From assembly GCA_013151745.1 (NCBI GenBank), contig JAADHS010000202.1, positions 818-64,817 on the forward strand: a DNA stretch of 64,000 nt, in the 5' to 3' direction. Under the pieces are notes generated by a model. It was not told the DNA's origin. It did not search any database and saw nothing but the letters and a program-made list of their open reading frames with translations. Below are positions 11,366 through 61,570 of the stretch, piece after piece. Position numbers and translations under genes: made by a program. The DNA is from Gammaproteobacteria bacterium. Lineage in GTDB: Bacteria > Pseudomonadota > Gammaproteobacteria > JAADHS01. Position 1 is the first letter of the stretch. The number at the start of each line of letters is the position of its first letter.

Positions 11366-11398
11366 AAGGGTTTACACGACGTAAACCCTTTTGTTTAT
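11366..11398 (+). terminator. Rho-independent terminator between convergent genes
   Basis: aagggtttac-acgac-gtaaaccctt is a 10-bp perfect stem followed by TTGTTTATT. Confidence 0.6.
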
Positions 11399-11913
11399 TG
11401 AATAGGGCCAGCAATAGCCATATTTATTGCGGTTCCCGATCCTGCCAAGCTGAATTTTGCTGTTTTCTTTTGTTGCTTTGAATCGATGTATTCTATCGTA
11501 ATTTGGTTTCCTGTTATCCACGGGTTAAGTGCATCTTGAGAGGTGAGTTGGGTATCTGTTGATTGCCAGATTCTCCATACGGCTTGTCCACTCTCAATGA
11601 AGGCCCAGCGTCGCCCCAGGTTATCTCCTGCCCGCTTTATTACATTAGCATCTTCTAATTTCCCATTATCAATTTGGTATTTAGGCAGTTTATCCGCAAA
11701 TTTGGCGTTGCCTGAAAGATTGAACTCAGCGTAAGCTTCATAGCCAGCGCGAGCAATTTTACGCCAGACATTTAAAGTTTCGCCATTCGCATTACTGACC
11801 GTTGCTATCCATTTAGAGCCTGGCGTCGATGTTTTATCCGAAAATGTCCATTGCTCAGCGAAAGCACTAGACGAAATTAAAATTATAAAAATTAAAGCGG
11901 CTATACGTAACAT
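11395..11913 (-). CDS. Secreted hypothetical protein (signal peptide, Trp-rich), no family recognised
   Basis: 172-aa ORF beginning MLRIAALIFIILISSSAFAEQ..., with no overlap to neighbouring genes. Confidence 0.5.
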   Translation of the reverse strand: MLRIAALIFIILISSSAFAEQWTFSDKTSTPGSKWIATVSNANGETLNVWRKIARAGYEAYAEFNLSGNAKFADKLPKYQIDNGKLEDANVIKRAGDNLGRRWAFIESGQAVWRIWQSTDTQLTSQDALNPWITGNQITIEYIDSKQQKKTAKFSLAGSGTAINMAIAGPIQ

Positions 11914-42977: not shown

Positions 42978-43433
42978 TTTTTTAGATTGCGATCAGTGCG
43001 AGCGTTCAGCTTAAAGACTTTTGCTATGTATTTGTGCAGGGCGAGCTATTTTGTTGAGTGATTTCCTGTGGATTAATGGTAAAAGCATTGACAGCAGGAT
43101 TGTGTTTAGTCTAGGATTCAGTTCCTTTGTCGCTGAATGATAATAAAAAGCATTTAGACAATGCAAGTTCAAGCCATTGGTGATTAACAAAGTGTAGTAT
43201 GTGCATTTAAAAACGGGCAAACATCCCGTCACCTGTTTAGATATCGGGGGATTTAAACAGTATAAATATTTAGTTTCGCGAGAGCCATCATTCTGACGTT
43301 GCGCATATATTGTGTTGTCGTTTTTGTGTCTGCGTGATGCTATTTATTTCCCTGCCAGGCAGAAATAAACCGATTTTTTAGGGTGAAATGCCGATTTGTA
43401 ATTTGGACGAAAGTTGGAAGGACGTTTTTGCAA

Positions 43434-44036
43434 ATGAATAAATATACTTATTGTTTGTACAATGGTAAGAGGCCGGTATCGTGGGTCTCTGCCATTTTGT
43501 TGGTTCTAGCGCTGGTATTTTCAGGAGCAGGGTTAGCAGAGGTGCCCAATGCAGTGCCACCAGAAGGGGAGCACAAAGGAGATGATGTTCCCCAGCCTAT
43601 ACATTTCCCTCATGATACGCATGCAAAAATCAACGAAATCAATTGTATGTATTGCCATACTTATGCACGTCGCAGCAAGGTTGCGGGTATTCCGCCAACA
43701 AGTAAATGCATGGGCTGTCATTCAGTCATCGCGACAGATAGTGATCGTATCAAAAAGCTGACAGAATATTGGGAAAAGAATGAGTCACCACCATGGAAAA
43801 AAGTCCATGATGTGCCCGATTATGTTCATTTTACTCATGAAAAACATATGAAGCGTTTCTTGTTTGACAACGAGGACATGGAAGTTGAGCGTGTATCAGA
43901 GGTGTGTGCTTTTTGTCACGGCGAGGTTAAAGATATGGAAGTGGCAAACAAGGTTAAACCGCTGAATATGGGGTTTTGTCAGCGTTGCCATGAGGCGAAT
44001 GGCGGGCCCTCAGACTGTTGGGCGTGTCATAAATAA
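43434..44036 (+). CDS. actA: Alternative complex III subunit ActA (pentahaem cytochrome c, N-terminal membrane anchor)
   Basis: Five CxxCH motifs (CMYCH, CMGCH, CAFCH, CQRCH, CWACH) and one N-terminal hydrophobic helix. The tracked ORF starts at an upstream GTG; the ATG at 43434 is the more likely start. Confidence 0.75.
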   Translation: MNKYTYCLYNGKRPVSWVSAILLVLALVFSGAGLAEVPNAVPPEGEHKGDDVPQPIHFPHDTHAKINEINCMYCHTYARRSKVAGIPPTSKCMGCHSVIATDSDRIKKLTEYWEKNESPPWKKVHDVPDYVHFTHEKHMKRFLFDNEDMEVERVSEVCAFCHGEVKDMEVANKVKPLNMGFCQRCHEANGGPSDCWACHK

Positions 44037-44103
44037 ATGCGGCTAGTACAGTTAGGCTGTATCTGGCAATAATGGAAACTAATTAGCGAACAGGTGATTT
44101 GAT

Positions 44104-46323
44104 ATGAGTGGTAACGATATCAACCGCAGAAAATTTTTAAAAGTGATGGGCTGGGGCGGCGCTGGGGCAGCACTGGCTGGCTGCGATATGCCAACAACAG
44201 TCACTTTGGAAGAAGGTAAAGAAACTGTTGTTTCGTATTTAATGCCTGAAGAGTATGTTATTCCAGGGCAAGGTGTTTATTTTGCTTCCACTTGCCAACA
44301 ATGTCCGGCGGGATGCGGTGTACATGGCCGAGTGCGAGAAGGTCGTGTGCTCAAACTTGAAGGTAATGCCGTTTCACCCATTAATGAGGGTGGGCTTTGT
44401 CAAATGGGTCAGGCAGGTGTACAAACTCATTACAATCCGGATCGCTTAACCAAACCGTTATTGCGTAAAGGGGGTTCATTAAGCGAGGTGACATGGGAAG
44501 AGGCTCTGGCTGCGCTGGATGAAAAAATAGGTGCAAATTCGAGTGTTGAAGGTGGCAAGGTTGCTTGGATGACTGGCACGGTAAGTGGCCATCAATCAGT
44601 GTTGTTAGAAGGGTTGTTAGAGTCTTTAGGGGGCGCTAAACATTACGTCTATGATTTGATCAATAATCATGTTGCTGCACAAGTGAATGAGGCAATGTAT
44701 GGCACAACCCGCCCGACTTATCATCTGACGAAGGCTAAAGCGGTTTTGTCGTTTGGTGCAGATCTAGTCGGTGTTTCTCAATCCCCCGTACACTTTGCTG
44801 CTGAATATGCAAAATTCCGAGAAGCACCACGCGGTGTGCTCATACAAGTTGAACCTAATATGTCTCTGACAGGCGGTAATGCTGACTTGTGGGTGCCTGC
44901 TAAGCCCGGTACGGAAGGCGCACTGGCTATGGGTATTGCCCATGAGTTGATTAATAATCATGGGAAAGATGCCAGCGCGTTGCCCTCTGGTTTAAATGGA
45001 AAAATAAAAGCTTATGATCTGGCCAAAGTTGAAACTCTGACTGGGGTTCCTACGGATAAAGTGAAGTCTATCGCAAAAATTCTGGCAGAAAAAGCACCGA
45101 GCTTGATACTAACAGGGGCTTCAATTGAGTCCTCAGAGAATGGTTATGCTGCGACGGCAGCCGCGGCCATGTTAAATGTTTTATTAGGCAATGTGGGCGA
45201 AACCATTACTTCTTCTGGTGGTTTCCCGTTTCCACAGCTGGATGCCAAAACGGGTTCGGGTGCCGATTTACTACAGTTTGCTGATGCCGCAGGCAAAGGT
45301 GCAATTGATGTTGTATTTTTTCATGGTGTGAACCCAGTTTTTACTGCACCAGGCTATTTAGATTTGGAAGCGGGATTAGGGAAAATTCCTTTTAAAGTTT
45401 CGTTGTCTTTGTTTGCGGATGAAACAACAAACCAGGCCGATCTGGTACTTCCTTTAGCTTCAGCGTTGGAAGATTGGGGCACTCATGTTCCCGCTTATCA
45501 GCCTGAACAATCCGTCATCGCTATGCAGCAACCCTTAATGGAAAAACTATATCCTGCAACGAAAGGCTTTGGTGATATTTTGCTCGATATGCTGAAGTTA
45601 CGTAAAGTTGAAGGCTATACAGATTTTTCTGATTATTATGCCTTTTTACAAGATGCGTTTGCGGCACTGCCTGCAGAGTTCAAAAATGGTGTTGACAATG
45701 CGTCATTCTGGAATCAAACATTAGCCTCTGGTTTTATTTCTATTCCAAAACAAAATGCCAGCATTACAGCCAATGCCTTAGATATTGCCGTCACCTTGCC
45801 AGGTGAAAATATAAACTATGGCTTGAGCTTGCTTCCTGCAATACGCTTGGGTATGTGGGATGGGCGGCATGCGAATATACCTTGGTTACAAGAGGCGCCC
45901 GACCAAATTACCAAAGCTGTTTGGGGTTCCTGGGCTGAGATTCATCCAAAAACTGCATCGCGTTTAGGTTTGGCGACTGGAGATTTTATTAAAGTTGAAT
46001 CTGTAAAAGGTGATGTGGAAGTCCCCGTCTATGTCTATCGTGGTGTGTTTCCTGATTCAGTTGCTGTCTCAGTTGGCCAAGGACATCAGGCTTATGGTCG
46101 TTATGCGGAAGGTCGTGGTGTTAATCCTTTAACTATATTGGATAGCGCCACGGATGGAAAGACGGGTGAGCCTGCCCTTTATGGTACGCGGGTTAAAGTC
46201 TCAAAAGTAGCTGTAAATAAAGATGAAATATTAGTTCAGTTTGGGGGTAGCGAATCTCAGGTTGGGCGTAAACTTGCAGCTACAATCACTGCAGAAGTGT
46301 TTAATCGCACTGAGGGAGCGTAA
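44104..46323 (+). CDS. actB: Alternative complex III subunit ActB1 (Tat-exported molybdopterin-oxidoreductase-like domain)
   Basis: Tat signal NRRKFLKVMGWGGAGAALAGC, N-terminal Cys cluster CQQCPAGCGVHG and the complex-iron-sulfur-molybdoenzyme fold; 739 aa. It is followed directly by a separate Fe-S subunit, so ActB is split. Confidence 0.75.
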   Translation: MSGNDINRRKFLKVMGWGGAGAALAGCDMPTTVTLEEGKETVVSYLMPEEYVIPGQGVYFASTCQQCPAGCGVHGRVREGRVLKLEGNAVSPINEGGLCQMGQAGVQTHYNPDRLTKPLLRKGGSLSEVTWEEALAALDEKIGANSSVEGGKVAWMTGTVSGHQSVLLEGLLESLGGAKHYVYDLINNHVAAQVNEAMYGTTRPTYHLTKAKAVLSFGADLVGVSQSPVHFAAEYAKFREAPRGVLIQVEPNMSLTGGNADLWVPAKPGTEGALAMGIAHELINNHGKDASALPSGLNGKIKAYDLAKVETLTGVPTDKVKSIAKILAEKAPSLILTGASIESSENGYAATAAAAMLNVLLGNVGETITSSGGFPFPQLDAKTGSGADLLQFADAAGKGAIDVVFFHGVNPVFTAPGYLDLEAGLGKIPFKVSLSLFADETTNQADLVLPLASALEDWGTHVPAYQPEQSVIAMQQPLMEKLYPATKGFGDILLDMLKLRKVEGYTDFSDYYAFLQDAFAALPAEFKNGVDNASFWNQTLASGFISIPKQNASITANALDIAVTLPGENINYGLSLLPAIRLGMWDGRHANIPWLQEAPDQITKAVWGSWAEIHPKTASRLGLATGDFIKVESVKGDVEVPVYVYRGVFPDSVAVSVGQGHQAYGRYAEGRGVNPLTILDSATDGKTGEPALYGTRVKVSKVAVNKDEILVQFGGSESQVGRKLAATITAEVFNRTEGA

Positions 46324-46325
46324 AA

Positions 46326-47174
46326 ATGTCATTGCAGAATGTTCTTACTAACTGGTCTCAATATCGTAAAACTCATGAAGATGGTGGGTTTTATGACTAT
46401 GAGCATATGTGGGGGATGTCCGTAGACTTGAATAAGTGTACGGGTTGTAACGCCTGTTCTGTTGCGTGTTATGCAGAAAACAATTTGGCGGTTGTCGGCA
46501 AAGAAAAGTTCGATAAAGGCCAGGGTATGCACTGGATGCGTGTTGAACGATATTGGGATGAACCTGACTTGGCAGCAGGCGAAAGCACGGAATTTTCAGA
46601 GCATGGTGGCAGTTTTTTGCCGATGATGTGTCAGCAATGTAATGCGGCGACTTGTGAGCCTGTTTGCCCGGTTGCCGCAACATACCATACACCTGATGGC
46701 TTAAATGCACAGGTTTATAATCGCTGTATCGGATCACGGTATTGCTCAAATAATTGCCCTTATCGTTTACGATATTTTAACTTTTACTCTTATTACGAAT
46801 CTTCATGGCCTGAACCTTTAAACATGCAGTTAAATCCTGATTTGTCTGTGCGTGACAAGGGCGTTATGGAAAAATGTACTTTTTGTGTTCAGCGGATACG
46901 TGTGGCTAAAGATACAGCAAGCCGGGAAAATCAAGCCCTTGTCGACGGAGATATTACGCCAGCTTGTGTTCAAACATGTCCAACTAAAGCCTTGGTTTTT
47001 GGTGATCTGATCAATACGGAAAGCAAGCTTTCTAAACTTTGGGCCTCTCACGAAGTTGAATTGGGTAAAACAGAGCAGCATAAGAAAAATAAAGAAAAGC
47101 GGGGTTACCGTGTATTTGAAGAACTCAATACGGATCCCTGTGTTATGTACTTGGAAAGAGTGAAAGAAGTATAA
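46326..47174 (+). CDS. actB: Alternative complex III subunit ActB2 (four-cluster ferredoxin, PsrB/NrfC-like)
   Basis: Four Cys motifs (CTGCNACSVAC; CQQCNAATCEPVCP; CIGSRYCSNNCPY; CTFC...CVQTCP); 282 aa. Confidence 0.75.
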   Translation: MSLQNVLTNWSQYRKTHEDGGFYDYEHMWGMSVDLNKCTGCNACSVACYAENNLAVVGKEKFDKGQGMHWMRVERYWDEPDLAAGESTEFSEHGGSFLPMMCQQCNAATCEPVCPVAATYHTPDGLNAQVYNRCIGSRYCSNNCPYRLRYFNFYSYYESSWPEPLNMQLNPDLSVRDKGVMEKCTFCVQRIRVAKDTASRENQALVDGDITPACVQTCPTKALVFGDLINTESKLSKLWASHEVELGKTEQHKKNKEKRGYRVFEELNTDPCVMYLERVKEV

Positions 47175-47248
47175 GTGTTTTGCACTACGAGAGTTGCTAA
47201 TTTAGTTGGCGTAAATGGACGAAAAAGCCTAACGTTTCGAGGGGCAGT

Positions 47249-48697
47249 ATGAAAGACATTAACGAAGATATAAAGTGGGCACAGATTAATAAAGATGTGC
47301 TCCGGAGTATGGAAAATCCCAGAAGGGGGTATTGGATTGCACTTATTGCGTGTGTCGCAATGATTGCCTGTGCGGTTGCGGCTGAAATATATCAGTACCA
47401 ATATGGAATGGGTACGGCGAACCTAAACTGGCCCCATATGTGGGATTTATACATTGCGACCTTCATTTTCTGGATTGGTATGAGTCATTCAGGAACCTTA
47501 TTGTCAGCAATTTTACATATTATTCATGCGGACTGGCGTAAGCCGATTTATCGTTTTGCTGAAGCCATGACCACCTTCTCATTGATGACAGCTGGGCTAT
47601 TTCCTATGATCCACTTAGGACGTGTCTGGAATTTATACTGGGTACTCCCTTATGTGACTGATCGTGGAATATGGCCGAACTTTCGTTCTCCCTTGGTTTG
47701 GGATGCTTTTGCAATTTCTACCTATTTAACTTCATCTGCGATTTTCTTATTTATAGGTATGATTCCAGATTTGGCTATTTGTCGTGACAATGCTCGTGGC
47801 TGGCGGAAAAAATTATATACCGCACTCTCTCTAGGTTGGAGAGGTGATGACAGGCAGTGGCGTAACTTCCGTCGTACCTATTTGGTTATGGCGTGTTTCT
47901 TGATCCCTCTTGCGGTATCCGTTCATTCGATCGTATCGTCTGATTTTGCAATGTCAATTATGCCGGGTTGGCACATCACTACCTTTCCACCTTACTTTGT
48001 GGCGGGTGCCTTGTACTCTGGTTGCGCCGCAATCATTACCTTGTTTGTCTTGTTACGTTACTTCTTCCGTTTTGAAGAGTACATGACCATATCCGTTCTT
48101 GAAAAGACCTGTAAGCTGACGTTCGCCATCGCGATGGTGTGGACTTACCTGAACCTGATCGAGTTTGCTTCTGTATGGTACGGTCACGATGTTCCAAGTA
48201 AAGAAGTCTTAATGGATAAGTTTGTAGGGCCTTATGCACCTTACTTTTGGGTGATGATCTTTTGTGGTTCGGTGATGCCCTTTGCCTTTGCTTTCCGTAA
48301 GCTGCGTCGACATATCCCCAGTATGTTTGTATTGTCAATTATCCTTAACCTCGGTATGTGGCTGGAACGCTGGATGATTGTTACACCCACGCTGAGTCTT
48401 GGTTATCATCCCATTGCGTTCGATACGATGTGGCCGAGTATGATCCAATGGGCTATTGTATTTGGTAGTTTTGGCTGGTTTGGCATGTTATTCCTGGTTT
48501 TTGTGAAAGTCTTTCCATCTGTATCGATGTATGAAGTTAAAGAGATGGTTTATCACCGTCGTGGATTGGCAGGCAAGGATCCTGATGCAGTGTTACATTC
48601 ACGCACAGGGAGCGATGATAGGCCGTCTTCCTCATCATCAGGCGGTGGTGGATCTCCGGGTGGTGGAACACCCGCGCCGGGCTTAGAAGGAGCTTAA
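47249..48697 (+). CDS. actC: Alternative complex III subunit ActC (NrfD/PsrC-like polytopic quinol-binding membrane subunit)
   Basis: 482-aa ORF with ~10 TM helices and a Gly/Ser-rich C-terminal tail; third position in the act operon. Confidence 0.7.
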   Translation: MKDINEDIKWAQINKDVLRSMENPRRGYWIALIACVAMIACAVAAEIYQYQYGMGTANLNWPHMWDLYIATFIFWIGMSHSGTLLSAILHIIHADWRKPIYRFAEAMTTFSLMTAGLFPMIHLGRVWNLYWVLPYVTDRGIWPNFRSPLVWDAFAISTYLTSSAIFLFIGMIPDLAICRDNARGWRKKLYTALSLGWRGDDRQWRNFRRTYLVMACFLIPLAVSVHSIVSSDFAMSIMPGWHITTFPPYFVAGALYSGCAAIITLFVLLRYFFRFEEYMTISVLEKTCKLTFAIAMVWTYLNLIEFASVWYGHDVPSKEVLMDKFVGPYAPYFWVMIFCGSVMPFAFAFRKLRRHIPSMFVLSIILNLGMWLERWMIVTPTLSLGYHPIAFDTMWPSMIQWAIVFGSFGWFGMLFLVFVKVFPSVSMYEVKEMVYHRRGLAGKDPDAVLHSRTGSDDRPSSSSSGGGGSPGGGTPAPGLEGA

Positions 48698-48699
48698 TA

Positions 48700-49227
48700 A
48701 TGAAAAAATATAAAATCATGGGCTTGTTTGCCAACTTTGGTGAGGCTTTTAATGTGATTAAGGATGTTGGCGAAGGTAAGCTTAAGGGAGCGAGTATTGA
48801 CGATATCACGACTAAGTCTCCTATTGAGCATCCTGAAATCGACGAGGTTCTCGGGCCTAGAAAATCTCACGTGCCCAAATTCACTCTCTGTGGTGCGATA
48901 TTTGGCATAACGTTTGGCTTCTTATTTCTTGCTGCTGCACAAGCCAATTTTCTGGTACAGCCGCAAGGTGGAAAAGCAGTCATTCCTATTCCGTCAAATA
49001 TAGTATTAACCTATGAAATGATGATTTTGTTTGCAGTGCTAAGTACGGTTGCAGGTTTTATGATCACAGCAAGAATGTTTACTAAACGCAGCCCACTATA
49101 TAGTGAAAAGGTTGGTGTCGATCAAATAGGTATTATCATTGATCTTGATGACTCTAATCTGGAAGCGGCTAAAGAGTTGTTGAAATCTCATCAGGTGCTT
49201 GAGATACGTGAAGAGGTAGTGAAATGA
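48700..49227 (+). CDS. actD: Alternative complex III subunit ActD
   Basis: 175-aa ORF with two central TM helices, translationally coupled to both neighbours (it overlaps actE by 4 bp). Confidence 0.6.
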   Translation: MKKYKIMGLFANFGEAFNVIKDVGEGKLKGASIDDITTKSPIEHPEIDEVLGPRKSHVPKFTLCGAIFGITFGFLFLAAAQANFLVQPQGGKAVIPIPSNIVLTYEMMILFAVLSTVAGFMITARMFTKRSPLYSEKVGVDQIGIIIDLDDSNLEAAKELLKSHQVLEIREEVVK

Positions 49228-49781
49228 GACGAATGGGTTTAGCTACTGCGGCATGTTTGTTGCCGTCAATAGTATTTGCATGGCCTTGGTCGACAGATAT
49301 GATGAATCAGCCAAGTATAAAGCCTCAAGAATTAGGGAATGGGACGACAGAAATGGCCGCATTTCCTGTTCGTTCAGTGCCTGTTCAAGGGCTTGCTACC
49401 AAAGTGAAAAATCGCGAGGAGGCAAAAACATTAACGAACCCGATTCCAGCGACGGCAGAATCATTAAAGACAGGTCGTACCTTGTTTCGTATCTATTGTT
49501 CAGCCTGTCATGGTTTGACTGGAAGGGGTGAATCGCCCGTAACGAATAAAATAGGTGCAATTGCCTTAAATGATGACTATGTTCAAAAAACACTAACCGA
49601 AGGTTGGATTTATGGAACTATTACTTTTGGTAGTTTTGTGATGCCAGCATATGGTGTGCCGGGGGGTAATGCTGAGCGACGAGGTTCCAATGACTTGGAT
49701 GTAGAAGAACGATGGCATGTTGTCAATTATGTACGCAATGGTTTAGTTAACGAGCCCGCCGTGAAAACGGCCTCTAAATAA
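49224..49781 (+). CDS. actE: Alternative complex III subunit ActE (monohaem cytochrome c)
   Basis: Signal/anchor sequence and a single CSACHG haem motif; 185 aa. Confidence 0.7.
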   Translation: MRRMGLATAACLLPSIVFAWPWSTDMMNQPSIKPQELGNGTTEMAAFPVRSVPVQGLATKVKNREEAKTLTNPIPATAESLKTGRTLFRIYCSACHGLTGRGESPVTNKIGAIALNDDYVQKTLTEGWIYGTITFGSFVMPAYGVPGGNAERRGSNDLDVEERWHVVNYVRNGLVNEPAVKTASK

Positions 49782-49828
49782 CTAATTATGTTTAAACTAT
49801 TTAATATTATGAGGCCAGAGGGTTAGCT

Positions 49829-50905
49829 ATGGAGAACTTTGGTAGTTGGTCGGTATTAACGACAAATTTTTTAATTGTGCTGTATCTTGCGCTTAATGGC
49901 GTAACACTTGCGGCGGTTTTGCATCTCGTTAATGGGAAGTGGCGTTTTAAGGTTCGCAATATTGCGGTCTCAATGGCGGCCTTGTTTCCCTTGGCATTTG
50001 TGTTATTGATATTGGTGTTGGCAAATGGTGAACATACGTTTACATGGGTGGCTGCGGCTGCACATGGCGGCGGGCATGGAGATGCAGAACATCATTTGTC
50101 TGGGTGGTTAAATTATGACTTTTTGGTTGCCAGGCAAGTAATAGGCTTCTTTATTATGGCGGGGCTCTATACGTTGTTTATCAAGTGGCAGCATGAAAGT
50201 GATGTTGATAGTTCTTATGCCGCGCAAAGGCGGTTTCGTAACATTGCTTTGCTGATTCCATTTTTCTACTTTGTCTATGGAACCATGGTTGCGTGGGATT
50301 TTGAGATGACGCAAGATCCTTTGTGGCATAGTGCGAGTTATGGTGTTTACCATTTTCAAAGTAATTTCCACATGTATTTAGCTTTCTTAACGGTCTTGCT
50401 GTTCTTCCTGAATCGTTCTGGAAGCCTAGAAGAAGAAATTGAGCCGAAAATATTCAATTATATGGCGCAGTTTATGCTCGCAATGACAATATTGTGGACC
50501 TATTTTTATTTCACTCAGTATCTGATTATGTGGTACGGGCGTCTGCCAATGGAGATGGGGCGTTTCGATGCCATGATGTATAATGGTTTTGCACCGCTGT
50601 GGTGGACTTTCTTGACCTTGAAATTTATTATTCCACTGGCTACTTTAGTCATCAATCCGAATCGACATAATCCTCCGGTGATTGTCGCTGTAGCATGTTG
50701 TATTTTGTTAGGTAGCTGGATTGAGCGTTATACGTGGATTGCAGGATCTGTTGACCCTGCTGACTACCATATGCCTATGAGTTCGTTTGTTGATATTGCT
50801 TTAACAGCTTTGGTTATCGGTGCAGGCTATTACTCAGTAAGATTTGCAATGCTTCGTTATGGTATTATCAGGCGGAAAACAGACGTAGAAGTAAAAGTAG
50901 AATAA
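49829..50905 (+). CDS. actF: Alternative complex III subunit ActF (second NrfD-like membrane subunit)
   Basis: 358-aa polytopic membrane protein, the last gene of the operon, followed by a strong terminator. Confidence 0.65.
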   Translation: MENFGSWSVLTTNFLIVLYLALNGVTLAAVLHLVNGKWRFKVRNIAVSMAALFPLAFVLLILVLANGEHTFTWVAAAAHGGGHGDAEHHLSGWLNYDFLVARQVIGFFIMAGLYTLFIKWQHESDVDSSYAAQRRFRNIALLIPFFYFVYGTMVAWDFEMTQDPLWHSASYGVYHFQSNFHMYLAFLTVLLFFLNRSGSLEEEIEPKIFNYMAQFMLAMTILWTYFYFTQYLIMWYGRLPMEMGRFDAMMYNGFAPLWWTFLTLKFIIPLATLVINPNRHNPPVIVAVACCILLGSWIERYTWIAGSVDPADYHMPMSSFVDIALTALVIGAGYYSVRFAMLRYGIIRRKTDVEVKVE

Positions 50906-50933
50906 CTCCTAATTTTAGAGTTTTACTACAGAG

Positions 50934-50965
50934 AAAAGGCGTGTTTTTACACGCCTTTTTTTATG
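50934..50965 (+). terminator. Rho-independent terminator of the act operon
   Basis: aaggcgtgt-tttta-acacgcctt followed by TTTTTT. Confidence 0.75.
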
Positions 50966-51220
50966 CTTGTTCTATGAGGAAAATTTTGGTTGAGGTAGGT
51001 CTGACGGAGAAAAACGAGCGAAGTTTGAGTGATTTTATATATCGTCGTGACGGACGCAGCAGTGCGGTGTTGGGGGAAAAGGAATGGGTTGTCAGTAAGC
51101 AAGGCGATTCTGGCAGGGGTGCTATAAAATCAATGCCGAGGTAGCGAGACTATTGGTTTTTTAAGATTAAATTATTGAGTCGTTTGCTCTCACTTCCTTC
51201 TTTCGAAGGAGGGTGGCTAT

Positions 51221-51892
51221 CTATCGCTGCGCATCGTGAAGCATGCTTAGATATTTGCGCCGACTGTCGATGCTTTTCATTAGCATGACAAGATGCTTGT
51301 AGACGGTGCCAATTTCTCGTCTTGCCTTTCCTCGGGGTTGAAATTCATGAACCGTTTGACCGCAAAAAGCAGCGTCACTAAAAGATAAGCGATAGCCCAC
51401 TGTGTAGGGGCAGATAAGTACATTGAAGTTATTAATGACTTTAATGGCATCATGGTAGCGACTGCGACGAAGAGGTACGTTGTTCATAACAACCAAGGCT
51501 TTAGCCAGGCCCAGGTTTTGCAGTGTCAGAGGAATGCTTTCAAAGTCATAAACTTGAGGCCTGCAAGGAATGATGGCCCAAGACGCAGCTTTAGCTGCAG
51601 CAGAGGTTGCTGGATGAGCACCTGCTGGGGTATCTATAACAACAAAATCTACATCGTTTTGCTTTGCTTTAGCCAAAGCGTTGGGCAAGTCTGAAGCGGT
51701 GCTTTCAATTATTGCAGGGCAGTCGTTATTTCGACGAGCGCTCCAATTTAAAGCAGATGTTTGTGGGTCAAGATCAACAACCAGAGTGTTGTGTCCTGCG
51801 AGTTGGGCTTCGACGGCCAGCGATAAGGCCAGTGTCGTTTTCCCCGTGCCACCTTTGTGGGCTATAACAGCGATGATATCCATATGCTCCAT
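51221..51892 (-). CDS. Orphan ParA/MinD-family P-loop ATPase (small ParA, deviant Walker A KGGTGKTT)
   Basis: MDIIAVIAHKGGTGKTTLALSLAVEAQLAGHNTLVVDLDPQ.... It is 223 aa, and no ParB or centromere-like partner ORF is adjacent. Confidence 0.8.
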   Translation of the reverse strand: MEHMDIIAVIAHKGGTGKTTLALSLAVEAQLAGHNTLVVDLDPQTSALNWSARRNNDCPAIIESTASDLPNALAKAKQNDVDFVVIDTPAGAHPATSAAAKAASWAIIPCRPQVYDFESIPLTLQNLGLAKALVVMNNVPLRRSRYHDAIKVINNFNVLICPYTVGYRLSFSDAAFCGQTVHEFQPRGKARREIGTVYKHLVMLMKSIDSRRKYLSMLHDAQR

Positions 51893-59746: not shown

Positions 59747-61570
59747 ATGAAAAAATCTGCGCTCATCAGCATTATAGGCATTATTATTTTTGCGGCTGTG
59801 GCCGGCAATTATTACCTCAATCAAAAAAAACCGACCATGGCTGAACAACCGGGAACACCTTTAATTCCAGAGCAAAAACAATTGCCTATGCCAAGTAGTC
59901 TGAGCTACGTACCGCAAGACACCTTTGCTTTTGCTGGCGGACTTGAGCTTTATAGTGTCGATGATCTGGTGACGATGCTAAAGTCGCAACAAAGCAATAT
60001 GTCCGACCTCACCTACGAAAAACTTCAAAAAGAAATACTTAACGATGAAGACACTCCTGTTGGATTCAAAATGCCCATGTTTACCCTGTTTGAATTAAGC
60101 TCCAGCGTAGAAAAGGATCCAAAAGCATTAGTAACACGGCTTGGGCTCTCTGATAAAGTAGACAGTGCAATTTATACCGTAGGCATGCTACCTGTTTTTC
60201 GCTTGAAAATTGAAAACACCGATAATTTCAACGCATTCATACAAGATATCGAAAAGAAAAATAATATTTTGGGTGTTGAGAAGAGCTTCGAAAAAGTGAG
60301 CTACCGCAGCTATACCTTCGACATTCCAGGTACAAAAAAACCAAGCGAAATAAGTTTCATCATCGCCGTACACGATAATTATGCTATTTTTTCAATAGAA
60401 ACACCGTTTGAGCGTGAGCATTACCTCTCTCTCGTTCTCGGTATAGACAAACCAAAAAAAGCTCTGTCAGATTCGTCATTGTTGAGCAACATCAGTACCC
60501 AATACAAACTGCACCCAGCCTATCTCGCTTTTTTTAATCACGTCGTGCTCACTAAGGCCGTGACCAACAGCTCACAGAATGATTTCGGAAAAATGTTGAA
60601 TGAGTTCATCGACCAGGACGGGGAGCACTTTCAAAATAAAGGCTTTGCGAATATTCGTACACCGGCTTGTCAAAAAGAACTGGTAGACATGGCGAAAAAT
60701 TGGCCTAGAACAGTGATGGGGTATACGAAAATTAGTCTGGATACTACCCCTCTACAAATGGATTCCCGAGTCCTTTTCGAAAGCAACAATAAAGACATGT
60801 TGGAACAATTACGCAGTTTACGTGGTTTCATTCCTGTGGTTTTGAATGACGCCCCATCAAGAGCACTACTAAGCCTGGCTCTAGGTTTGAATGTTGATGC
60901 GTTGCTTCCCTTTATTAAAAAAATCACCGCAGATATCACGGCAACTCCTTACTCTTGTGAACCGCTTAAAAAAATGCAATTGGCCATCTCTGAAAACCCG
61001 CAAAGTCCAGCTATTGCCATGGCCTCAATGATGCTTTCGGGCGTTAAAGGCTTGTCAATTTCATTGCTCGACATCGATTTTACCGCAAATGACACAGGCG
61101 AAAAGCCCGAGATAAAGTCGCTTGATGCCTTGATCACCTTGTCCACGAATGACCCATCTGGATTATTAGATAAAGCATTGGCCATGGCGCCAGCGCCATA
61201 TGATACGCTACAAGTGGCTGCCGATGGTCAAGCTATAGATTTTCCTATACCGATGCAACTTCCTTCCGAGCTGCAAACTAAAATCGCCATCAAAGGTCAA
61301 CATATTGTCATTTACATAGGGGGGGACGGAGAAAAAGCAGCAAACCAACTGTCCACAGAAGCCTTATCTGAAAATGGACTGTTTGCATTCAATATAGGCT
61401 ATGAAAAATACAGCCGAATCCTTAAAAAGGCAATGAACATACTAGAAGACATGGACGAAGAAAAAGCGGAAATATTTCAGTCTATGGATAGTTTTAATGC
61501 GGATATGAATTTTTTGATTGACGTAAACCAGTATGGGCTGGTTATTGATACTCAGCTAACTATTCATTAA
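59747..61570 (+). CDS. Hypothetical membrane-anchored or secreted protein (607 aa), no family recognised
   Basis: The N-terminal helix MKKSALISIIGIIIFAAVAGNYY is followed by a Pro-rich linker; the rest is hydrophilic. Codon usage is consistent, and it lies divergent to the DUF533 gene. Confidence 0.5.
   Translation: MKKSALISIIGIIIFAAVAGNYYLNQKKPTMAEQPGTPLIPEQKQLPMPSSLSYVPQDTFAFAGGLELYSVDDLVTMLKSQQSNMSDLTYEKLQKEILNDEDTPVGFKMPMFTLFELSSSVEKDPKALVTRLGLSDKVDSAIYTVGMLPVFRLKIENTDNFNAFIQDIEKKNNILGVEKSFEKVSYRSYTFDIPGTKKPSEISFIIAVHDNYAIFSIETPFEREHYLSLVLGIDKPKKALSDSSLLSNISTQYKLHPAYLAFFNHVVLTKAVTNSSQNDFGKMLNEFIDQDGEHFQNKGFANIRTPACQKELVDMAKNWPRTVMGYTKISLDTTPLQMDSRVLFESNNKDMLEQLRSLRGFIPVVLNDAPSRALLSLALGLNVDALLPFIKKITADITATPYSCEPLKKMQLAISENPQSPAIAMASMMLSGVKGLSISLLDIDFTANDTGEKPEIKSLDALITLSTNDPSGLLDKALAMAPAPYDTLQVAADGQAIDFPIPMQLPSELQTKIAIKGQHIVIYIGGDGEKAANQLSTEALSENGLFAFNIGYEKYSRILKKAMNILEDMDEEKAEIFQSMDSFNADMNFLIDVNQYGLVIDTQLTIH

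Follow-up and report, generated by a model that had tools for sequence, protein, structure and literature searches.

Does a 64,000-nucleotide stretch of gammaproteobacterial DNA (GenBank assembly GCA_013151745.1, contig JAADHS010000202.1, positions 818 to 64,817 of the forward strand; hereafter the window) encode a complete alternative complex III (ACIII), and is the division of its subunit ActB between two genes, actB1 and actB2, a real property of the complex? An initial annotation, made from the nucleotide sequence, had described a full set of act genes with a split actB, no linked oxidase and an orphan ParA-like ATPase next to it. Our follow-up analysis makes it highly probable that the region is a single actA-actB1-actB2-actC-actD-actE-actF operon which would encode an ACIII of the split-ActB type. 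The genes and signals of this predicted operon are listed below, with coordinates counted from the first letter of the window.

43088 to 43117, + strand: sigma-70-like promoter match TTGACA-18-TAGGAT between nif3 and actA, a candidate for the promoter of the operon
43434 to 44036, + strand: actA, membrane-anchored pentahaem cytochrome c, assigned from its open reading frame (ORF), haem motifs and solved-structure matches
44104 to 46323, + strand: actB1, molybdopterin-oxidoreductase-like subunit exported by twin-arginine translocation (Tat)
46321 to 46328, + strand: B1/B2 junction, a TAA stop, a 2-nt spacer and an ATG start in a different frame
46326 to 47174, + strand: actB2, ferredoxin-like subunit without a signal peptide of its own
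47249 to 48697, + strand: actC, NrfD/PsrC-like membrane subunit with quinol site and proton path
48700 to 49227, + strand: actD, ACIII-specific two-helix membrane subunit
49224 to 49781, + strand: actE, monohaem cytochrome c, overlapping actD by 4 nt
49829 to 50905, + strand: actF, second NrfD-like membrane subunit and paralogue of ActC
50931 to 50962, + strand: intrinsic-terminator-like hairpin whose 14-bp stem contains 5 G-C pairs and closes on a loop of 4 nt, with a T-run after it

All seven act genes are co-directional, with successive spacings of 67, 2, 74, 2, -4 and 47 nt. The actA ORF opens with a GTG at 43383, and translation more likely begins from the ATG at 43434. The complete seven-gene operon of the initial annotation was recovered, with every ORF at the coordinates given above and with subunits A, B1, B2, C and F matching the cognate ACIII chains. 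The terminator proposed downstream of actF was likewise found as a hairpin with a T-run at 50931-50962. Sigma-70-like matches are no commoner in the region than in shuffled sequences, and the promoter candidate is weak, being a consensus match only. The window proteins are identical to GenBank entries NOY73216-NOY73225, whose locus tags begin with GXP14_ and in which the act proteins carry generic names ("molybdopterin-dependent oxidoreductase", "4Fe-4S dicluster domain-containing protein", "polysulfide reductase NrfD" and "hypothetical protein"). The practical value of our analysis is that the act operon can now be named where the GenBank annotation is generic. As a discovery it carries little weight, as the operon is one more vent-derived gammaproteobacterial example of a described ACIII variant.

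Subunit identities were assigned using sequence searches against all solved structures and against the Pfam and NCBIfam families. ActA contains five CXXCH motifs and one N-terminal hydrophobic segment, and its top solved-structure matches are the ActA chains 6lod_A, 6f0k_A, 8k9e_A and 6btm_A (E 2e-25 to 7e-22). ActC matches the Pfam family NrfD (2e-25), and ActC chains are its top solved-structure matches with E values of 1e-95 to 3e-103 (6f0k_C 1e-101). Using the residue lists published for Rhodothermus marinus (PMC5928083) and reading the corresponding positions off the alignment to 6f0k_C, we found all nine residues of the quinol pocket to be identical (Trp82, Ile86, Phe89, Pro136, His139, Leu166, Asp169, Val250 and Asp253). 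The cytoplasmic proton half-channel is also completely conserved (14/14), as is Ser245. As a separate observation, the C-terminus of ActC (window positions 48590-48697) is a low-complexity Ser/Gly/Pro tail, SSSSSGGGGSPGGGTPAPGLEGA, which is left unaligned even in the 96% relative, where tblastn spans residues 1-450 only.

ActD matches the ACIII-specific Pfam family PF11821 (ActD) over its full length (E 6e-30). Among solved structures it gave a weak match to 6lod_D, the only solved ActD to match at all. In its second helix, E106 is aligned with a Glu at the same position of Roseiflexus ActD, and we infer that it is the counterpart of Glu122 of R. marinus. The identity of ActE rests on a single CXXCH motif at residue 92 together with the Pfam families Cytochrome_CBB3 and Cytochrom_C. 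In case of ActF, no family match was obtained in Pfam or NCBIfam, and its identity was resolved via the solved-structure search and its paralogy to ActC. ActF chains are the top matches (6f0k_F at 6e-23, then 6btm_F, 8k9e_F and 6lod_F, down to 3e-11), ActC chains rank lower, and within the window ActF is paralogous to ActC with an E value of 5e-14. Further, Y225 of ActF is aligned with Tyr284, a conserved residue of R. marinus ActF. The initial annotation had named a failure of the membrane subunits to match ActC and ActF models as grounds for giving up the ACIII assignment; both subunits match the cognate chains of solved ACIIIs.

The two halves of ActB could be assigned in the same way. ActB2 consists of ferredoxin domains (Pfam) with 15 cluster cysteines in a 4+4+3+2+2 arrangement, which fits three [4Fe-4S] clusters and one [3Fe-4S] cluster and bears out the four Fe-S clusters initially ascribed to it. 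Its solved-structure matches fall on residues ca. 680-995 of fused ActB chains (E 2e-69 to 2e-57), and every cluster cysteine is conserved in the alignment to residues 790-995 of R. marinus ActB (6f0k_B, E 2e-69). As first described, ActB is encoded by two ORFs with a 2-bp spacer: the actB1 stop TAA (46321-46323) is followed by 'aa' and by the actB2 ATG at 46326. A Shine-Dalgarno (SD) sequence, GAGGGAG, lies within the 3' end of actB1, and the actB2 frame is closed by an in-frame TGA five codons upstream of the ATG.

A scan of one genome per species yielded 17 related loci (L001-L017), which include metagenome-assembled genomes (MAGs) labelled Chromatiaceae, Gammaproteobacteria, Sideroxydans and Leptothrix ochracea. 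Their ActB1 proteins are 96% to 44% identical to that of the window where actB1 is intact, and 28% identical in the frameshifted L017. The gene order A-B1-B2-C-D-E-F was observed in every related locus extending far enough. In all 17 loci the B1 stop is followed by, or overlaps, a separate B2 start, with frame offsets of 0, 1 or 2. The 3' end of actB1 contains a GGAG-type SD that is conserved across the related loci, as is the N-terminus MS(L/I) of ActB2. Further, the best 120 B1 homologues from a collection of 5.8 billion proteins are all 724-771 amino acids (aa) long and lack a ferredoxin domain. Judged from these sequence comparisons, the B1/B2 split is ancient and typical of the clade. As a side observation, ActB1 itself is broken by internal frameshifts or stops in two long-read MAGs of the MFD series (L016:5710-7927 and L017:10001-12244), while the B1/B2 junction is intact in both. 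These interruptions may be long-read errors or pseudogenes.

ActB1 carries the twin-arginine motif RRKFLK and the Pfam domains PF04879 (Molybdop_Fe4S4), PF00384 (Molybdopterin) and PF01568 (Molydop_binding). Its top solved-structure matches are the B1 part of fused ActB in 6lod_B, 8k9e_B, 6f0k_B and 6btm_B (E 7e-47 to 1e-35). The FS0 [4Fe-4S] motif CX2CX3CX27C is complete (C64, C67, C71 and C99; window 44293-44400), and a LAGC lipobox with C27 stands directly after the twin-arginine motif (window 44104-44190). Conservation was assessed in a MAFFT alignment of 121 ActB1 sequences, in which the four FS0 cysteines and C27 are invariant (121/121). These five are the only cysteines in ActB1 of the window. 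The invariance of the LAGC cysteine suggests that ActB1 would be a Tat-exported lipoprotein.

An operon of this type has precedents. Clusters of the form "actAB1B2CDEF" with CX2CX3CX27C in ActB1 were described for Ferriphaselus, Sideroxydans, Gallionella, Mariprofundus, Ferrovum and L. ochracea (Kato et al. 2015, PMC4643136). In the 2018 paper on the ACIII structure, the search was for "actABCDEF or actAB1B2CDEF" (PMC5928083), a Nitrotoga preprint uses the name actAB1B2CDEF (10.1101/317552), and actB1 and actB2 are split in Nitrospirales clusters (PMC12342949). A two-polypeptide ActB is a recognised variant (PMC4643136, PMC9386147), and according to Refojo et al., as cited in PMC9386147, ACIIIs whose acceptors are periplasmic do not cluster with oxidase genes. 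Thus, split ActB is not new, and ACIII clusters without an adjacent oxidase have also already been described; the unusualness that the initial annotation implied for both features did not stand up to the literature (PMC4643136, PMC5928083, PMC9386147, 10.1101/317552).

The window operon shares with the iron-oxidiser and Nitrotoga actAB1B2CDEF clusters its gene order, the split actB, the CX2CX3CX27C motif in ActB1 and a set of seven genes without actG. Its ActB1 is 46-48% identical to those of the Sideroxydans and L. ochracea loci. In contrast to the iron oxidisers, the host of the window is an uncultured hydrothermal-vent gammaproteobacterium within a large sub-group of Gammaproteobacteria in which ActB1 shares 55-96% identity with that of the window. 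The source of an 85% relative is a hydrothermal vent metagenome, and no cyc2-like or other iron-oxidation gene was noticed in the 64-kb window. With the solved ACIIIs (R. marinus 6F0K, Flavobacterium johnsoniae 6BTM, Roseiflexus castenholzii 6LOD, 8K9E) the window has subunits A-F in common, and the ActC quinol pocket, the cytoplasmic half-channel and the B2 Fe-S cysteines are conserved. The cross-talk Tyr of R. marinus ActF is aligned with a Tyr of window ActF, and the Glu of Roseiflexus ActD is kept. ActB of the solved ACIIIs is, however, one polypeptide of ca. 930-1040 aa whose B1 domain is without all four FS0 cysteines, whereas B1 of the window is a separate protein and FS0 is present. 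The window also differs from them in its N-terminally shorter ActF, the absence of actG and the absence of adjacent oxidase genes. Tenderiales and allied Gammaproteobacteria (Ca. Tenderia electrophaga) resemble the window in being gammaproteobacterial hosts of the lithoautotroph type from marine sediment and vents. Their ACIII coexists with the bc1 complex and has been proposed to deliver electrons to the quinone pool (10.1101/2022.05.06.490989; PMC5371394), whereas the window contains no bc1 genes.

Homology establishes the predicted complex as a complete ACIII with intact quinol site, Fe-S wire, six-haem wire and proton half-channels. On the same grounds, quinol or quinone binds in the conserved ActC pocket. 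By analogy with the solved ACIIIs, electrons would move between this pocket and the [3Fe-4S] cluster of ActB2, and then via the five ActA haems and the ActE haem to a periplasmic carrier or oxidase. ActB1, which has the Tat signal, would carry the signal-less ActB2 across the membrane, as in other two-gene pairs of the iron-sulfur molybdoenzyme family, and may be lipid-anchored. Net flow could be forward, from quinol to cytochrome c, or reverse, from cytochrome c to quinone and driven by proton-motive force.

Several points weigh against this ACIII assignment. In the ActC periplasmic half-channel, four of six residues are identical to R. marinus and two differ. ActF, with 358 aa, is ca. 56 N-terminal residues shorter than R. 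marinus ActF, the alignment starting at residue 71 of the latter, and this shortening may possibly remove the first transmembrane helix; the ORF cannot extend upstream, and relatives have the short form too. No electron acceptor or oxidase is encoded near the act operon. The top NCBIfam models for ActA, ActB1 and ActB2 are those of another complex, namely QrcA (70 bits), QrcB (298 bits) and QrcC (220 bits). Lastly, for a split-type, FS0-bearing ACIII we infer activity, cofactor content and direction of electron flow alike.

Direction is the subject of the alternative that survives best, which is a rival to forward flow and not to the identity of the complex. Here, ACIII would run mainly in reverse and use proton-motive force to push electrons from periplasmic cytochromes (supplied, for example, by Fe(II), by reduced sulfur or by a mineral surface) into the quinone pool, while a separate bc1 would serve forward flow. 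We consider this possible, though short of probable. It is favoured by the lithoautotrophic origin of the closest named relatives of the operon (Sideroxydans and L. ochracea, at the 46-48% ActB1 identity given above), and such a role has been proposed before (PMC4643136; 10.1101/317552 for Nitrotoga; PMC5371394 and 10.1101/2022.05.06.490989 for Tenderiales having both ACIII and bc1). These published proposals are, however, themselves hypotheses, and all biochemically studied ACIIIs oxidise quinol (PMC5928083). The window itself holds no cyc2, sox or other lithotrophy genes that would bear on the donor.

Gene neighbourhoods speak for both directions. The operon of the window is unlinked to an oxidase, which would suit reverse flow: in agreement with the initial annotation, no cytochrome oxidase gene was found in the 64-kb window, nor any bc1 gene, by Pfam on the scanned ORFs of at least 150 aa or by tblastn with the pet and cco proteins of relatives. 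Among the related loci, two different arrangements were observed downstream of actF.

L003:16873-19513, co-directional with actF: petABC after actF
L004:9092-11663, co-directional with actF: petABC after actF
L011:14510-17192, co-directional with actF: petABC after actF
L013:16853-19251: COX1 and FixO-type oxidase after actF, with the same arrangement in L012, L015 and L017

In the first three, which are gammaproteobacterial relatives with 54-55% ActB1 identity, petA-petB-petC (Rieske, cytochrome b and cytochrome c1) follow directly 3' of actF. This indicates that ACIII and bc1 coexist and are probably non-redundant, a point in favour of reverse flow through ACIII. In four more distant relatives, a cbb3-like oxidase consisting of a COX1-family protein (476 aa) and a FixO-domain protein (313 aa) comes directly after actF instead, an arrangement that fits forward flow. 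The clade thus does include act operons linked to an oxidase, though that of the window is not one of them.

A second alternative concerns ActB1, which might be a catalytically active Mo/W-bisPGD enzyme that, like Psr and Arr, converts a periplasmic substrate and couples this reaction to the quinone pool. ActB1 has all three molybdopterin-oxidoreductase Pfam domains as well as the complete and invariant FS0 motif, and in true molybdoenzymes the FS0 cluster forms the electronic link between the Mo centre and the ferredoxin subunit. Its next-best structural relatives are ArrA and the PsrA-type thiosulfate/polysulfide reductase (2vpw_A). According to our alignments, the FS0 positions are non-cysteine in all four solved ActBs while the cysteines are present in ArrA. 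However, the Mo-ligand Cys of ArrA (chain residue 153, which we take to be Cys193 of the full-length protein) is aligned to Asn187 of ActB1, as read from a single pairwise alignment whose register could shift by a few residues. Position 187 is Asn in 106/121 and Ser in 10/121 of the ActB1 homologues and never Cys, so that ActB1 would be without the canonical Mo ligand. The protein has only its five cysteines to offer, and it matches best to the B1 domains of the solved ACIIIs, which are free of cofactor (see also PMC5928083). An active ActB1 is accordingly very unlikely in our view. Since the FS0 motif is kept yet the canonical Mo ligand is missing, ActB1 is probably a non-catalytic scaffold of the ACIII which may hold a fifth cluster.

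The FS0 motif extends well beyond the split complexes. With B2 as query, we searched 1.84 billion cluster representatives and classed the best 150 matches by length, which gave 95 full-length fused ActB proteins, 11 short proteins of at most 330 aa and 44 proteins of intermediate length. Only some of the 11 short representatives look like complete stand-alone B2 proteins, and the 44 intermediate ones are probably mostly fragments. The B2 domains of the 95 fused representatives are 47-64% identical to B2 of the window. Among these 95, the FS0 motif was present in 65, compared with none of the four solved ACIIIs; the motif is thus widespread and untied to the split. It seems that no ACIII with FS0 has so far been characterised. 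In the solved ACIIIs, the contribution of FeS2-4 to electron flow is unexplained. One could imagine that FS0 of ActB1 binds a fifth Fe-S cluster which extends the FeS2-4 wire to a second site on B1 where electrons would enter or leave on the periplasmic side, making these complexes functionally distinct and possibly reverse-running or branched ACIIIs of vent and sediment lithoautotrophs, a proposal that we regard as unlikely on present sequence data. The wider questions are family-wide and were not opened by this window, namely the role of FS0 and the direction in which FS0-bearing ACIIIs run in lithoautotrophs also having bc1.

A further alternative, that the operon encodes a Qrc-type menaquinone reductase (QrcABCD) and not an ACIII, is highly improbable. 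Qrc, known from sulfate reducers, does resemble the window complex in having a related multihaem cytochrome, a molybdopterin-like subunit without catalytic Mo, a ferredoxin subunit and an NrfD-type membrane subunit, with its B and C subunits likewise separate. The NCBIfam scores given above, although the highest for three subunits, remain far under the curated cut-offs of 180 (QrcA), 440 (QrcB) and 400 (QrcC). NCBIfam gave no ACIII model among the matches, so its ranking may be uninformative. Among solved structures, ACIII chains rank first for ActA, B1, B2, C and F. QrcA has six haems, and ActA has five CXXCH motifs. ActD (PF11821), ActE and ActF are all present in the window operon and have no place in Qrc. 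Based on the sub-threshold scores and these extra subunits, Qrc membership was ruled out.

The weakest alternative is that the two actB ORFs, lying 2 nt apart in different frames, are really a single actB of the fused kind known from four solved ACIIIs, broken by a frameshift in sequencing or assembly or by a recent mutation towards a pseudogene. This possibility, a form of which the initial annotation had raised for the junction, has a negligible probability and was ruled out by the 17-locus and 120-homologue comparison: the stop-then-start arrangement recurs in 17/17 independent loci of different assemblies with differing frame offsets and conserved SDs, the best 120 homologues are all stand-alone B1 proteins, the MS(L/I) start of B2 is conserved and the split form is in the literature (PMC4643136).

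Downstream of the ACIII operon, the orphan ATPase gene noted at the outset was found as a convergent neighbour without a partner ORF.

51221 to 51892, - strand: parA, ParA-like ATPase of 223 aa, convergent neighbour of the act operon

The protein has an intact deviant Walker A motif (KGGTGKT) and is ca. 40% identical to small plasmid ParAs. It scores 148 bits against the NCBIfam model ParA_partition NF041546, under the cut-off of 180. No partner ORF is adjacent to parA, and neither an integrase nor a tRNA lies next to it. Among the related loci, parA was found only in L001, the 96% relative. In L002 (67% identity), the order degS-nif3-act...rpe-gph-trpE is kept, and CopD-like and DUF3530 genes, not parA, lie between actF and rpe. 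ParA has no evident link to the complex and is a lineage-specific orphan neighbour. Its candidacy as a functional partner or mobile-element marker was dropped, given its restriction to the 96% relative and the lack of a partner gene, an integrase or an adjacent tRNA.

The other genes examined in the 64 kb are housekeeping genes or have no assigned function. They include the following groups.

gltB, which runs off the left end of the window, ribonucleotide reductase, ubiD and amtB
ychF-pth-rplY-prs-ispE-lolB and hemA-prfA-prmC
an ABC-F ATPase gene, degS and nif3, followed by the act operon with parA
rpe-gph-trpEGDC and lysA

Rfam and tRNA scans of the window detected two tRNAs and no rRNA. Two ORFs were without a Pfam family, one of 607 aa at 59747-61570 on the + strand (at E<=1e-5) and one of 172 aa at 11395-11913 on the - strand (at E<=1e-6). 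GC skew is strongly positive (0.10-0.21) from ca. 36 kb to 58 kb and negative past 58 kb, which coincides with a switch in gene orientation at ca. 57.6 kb.

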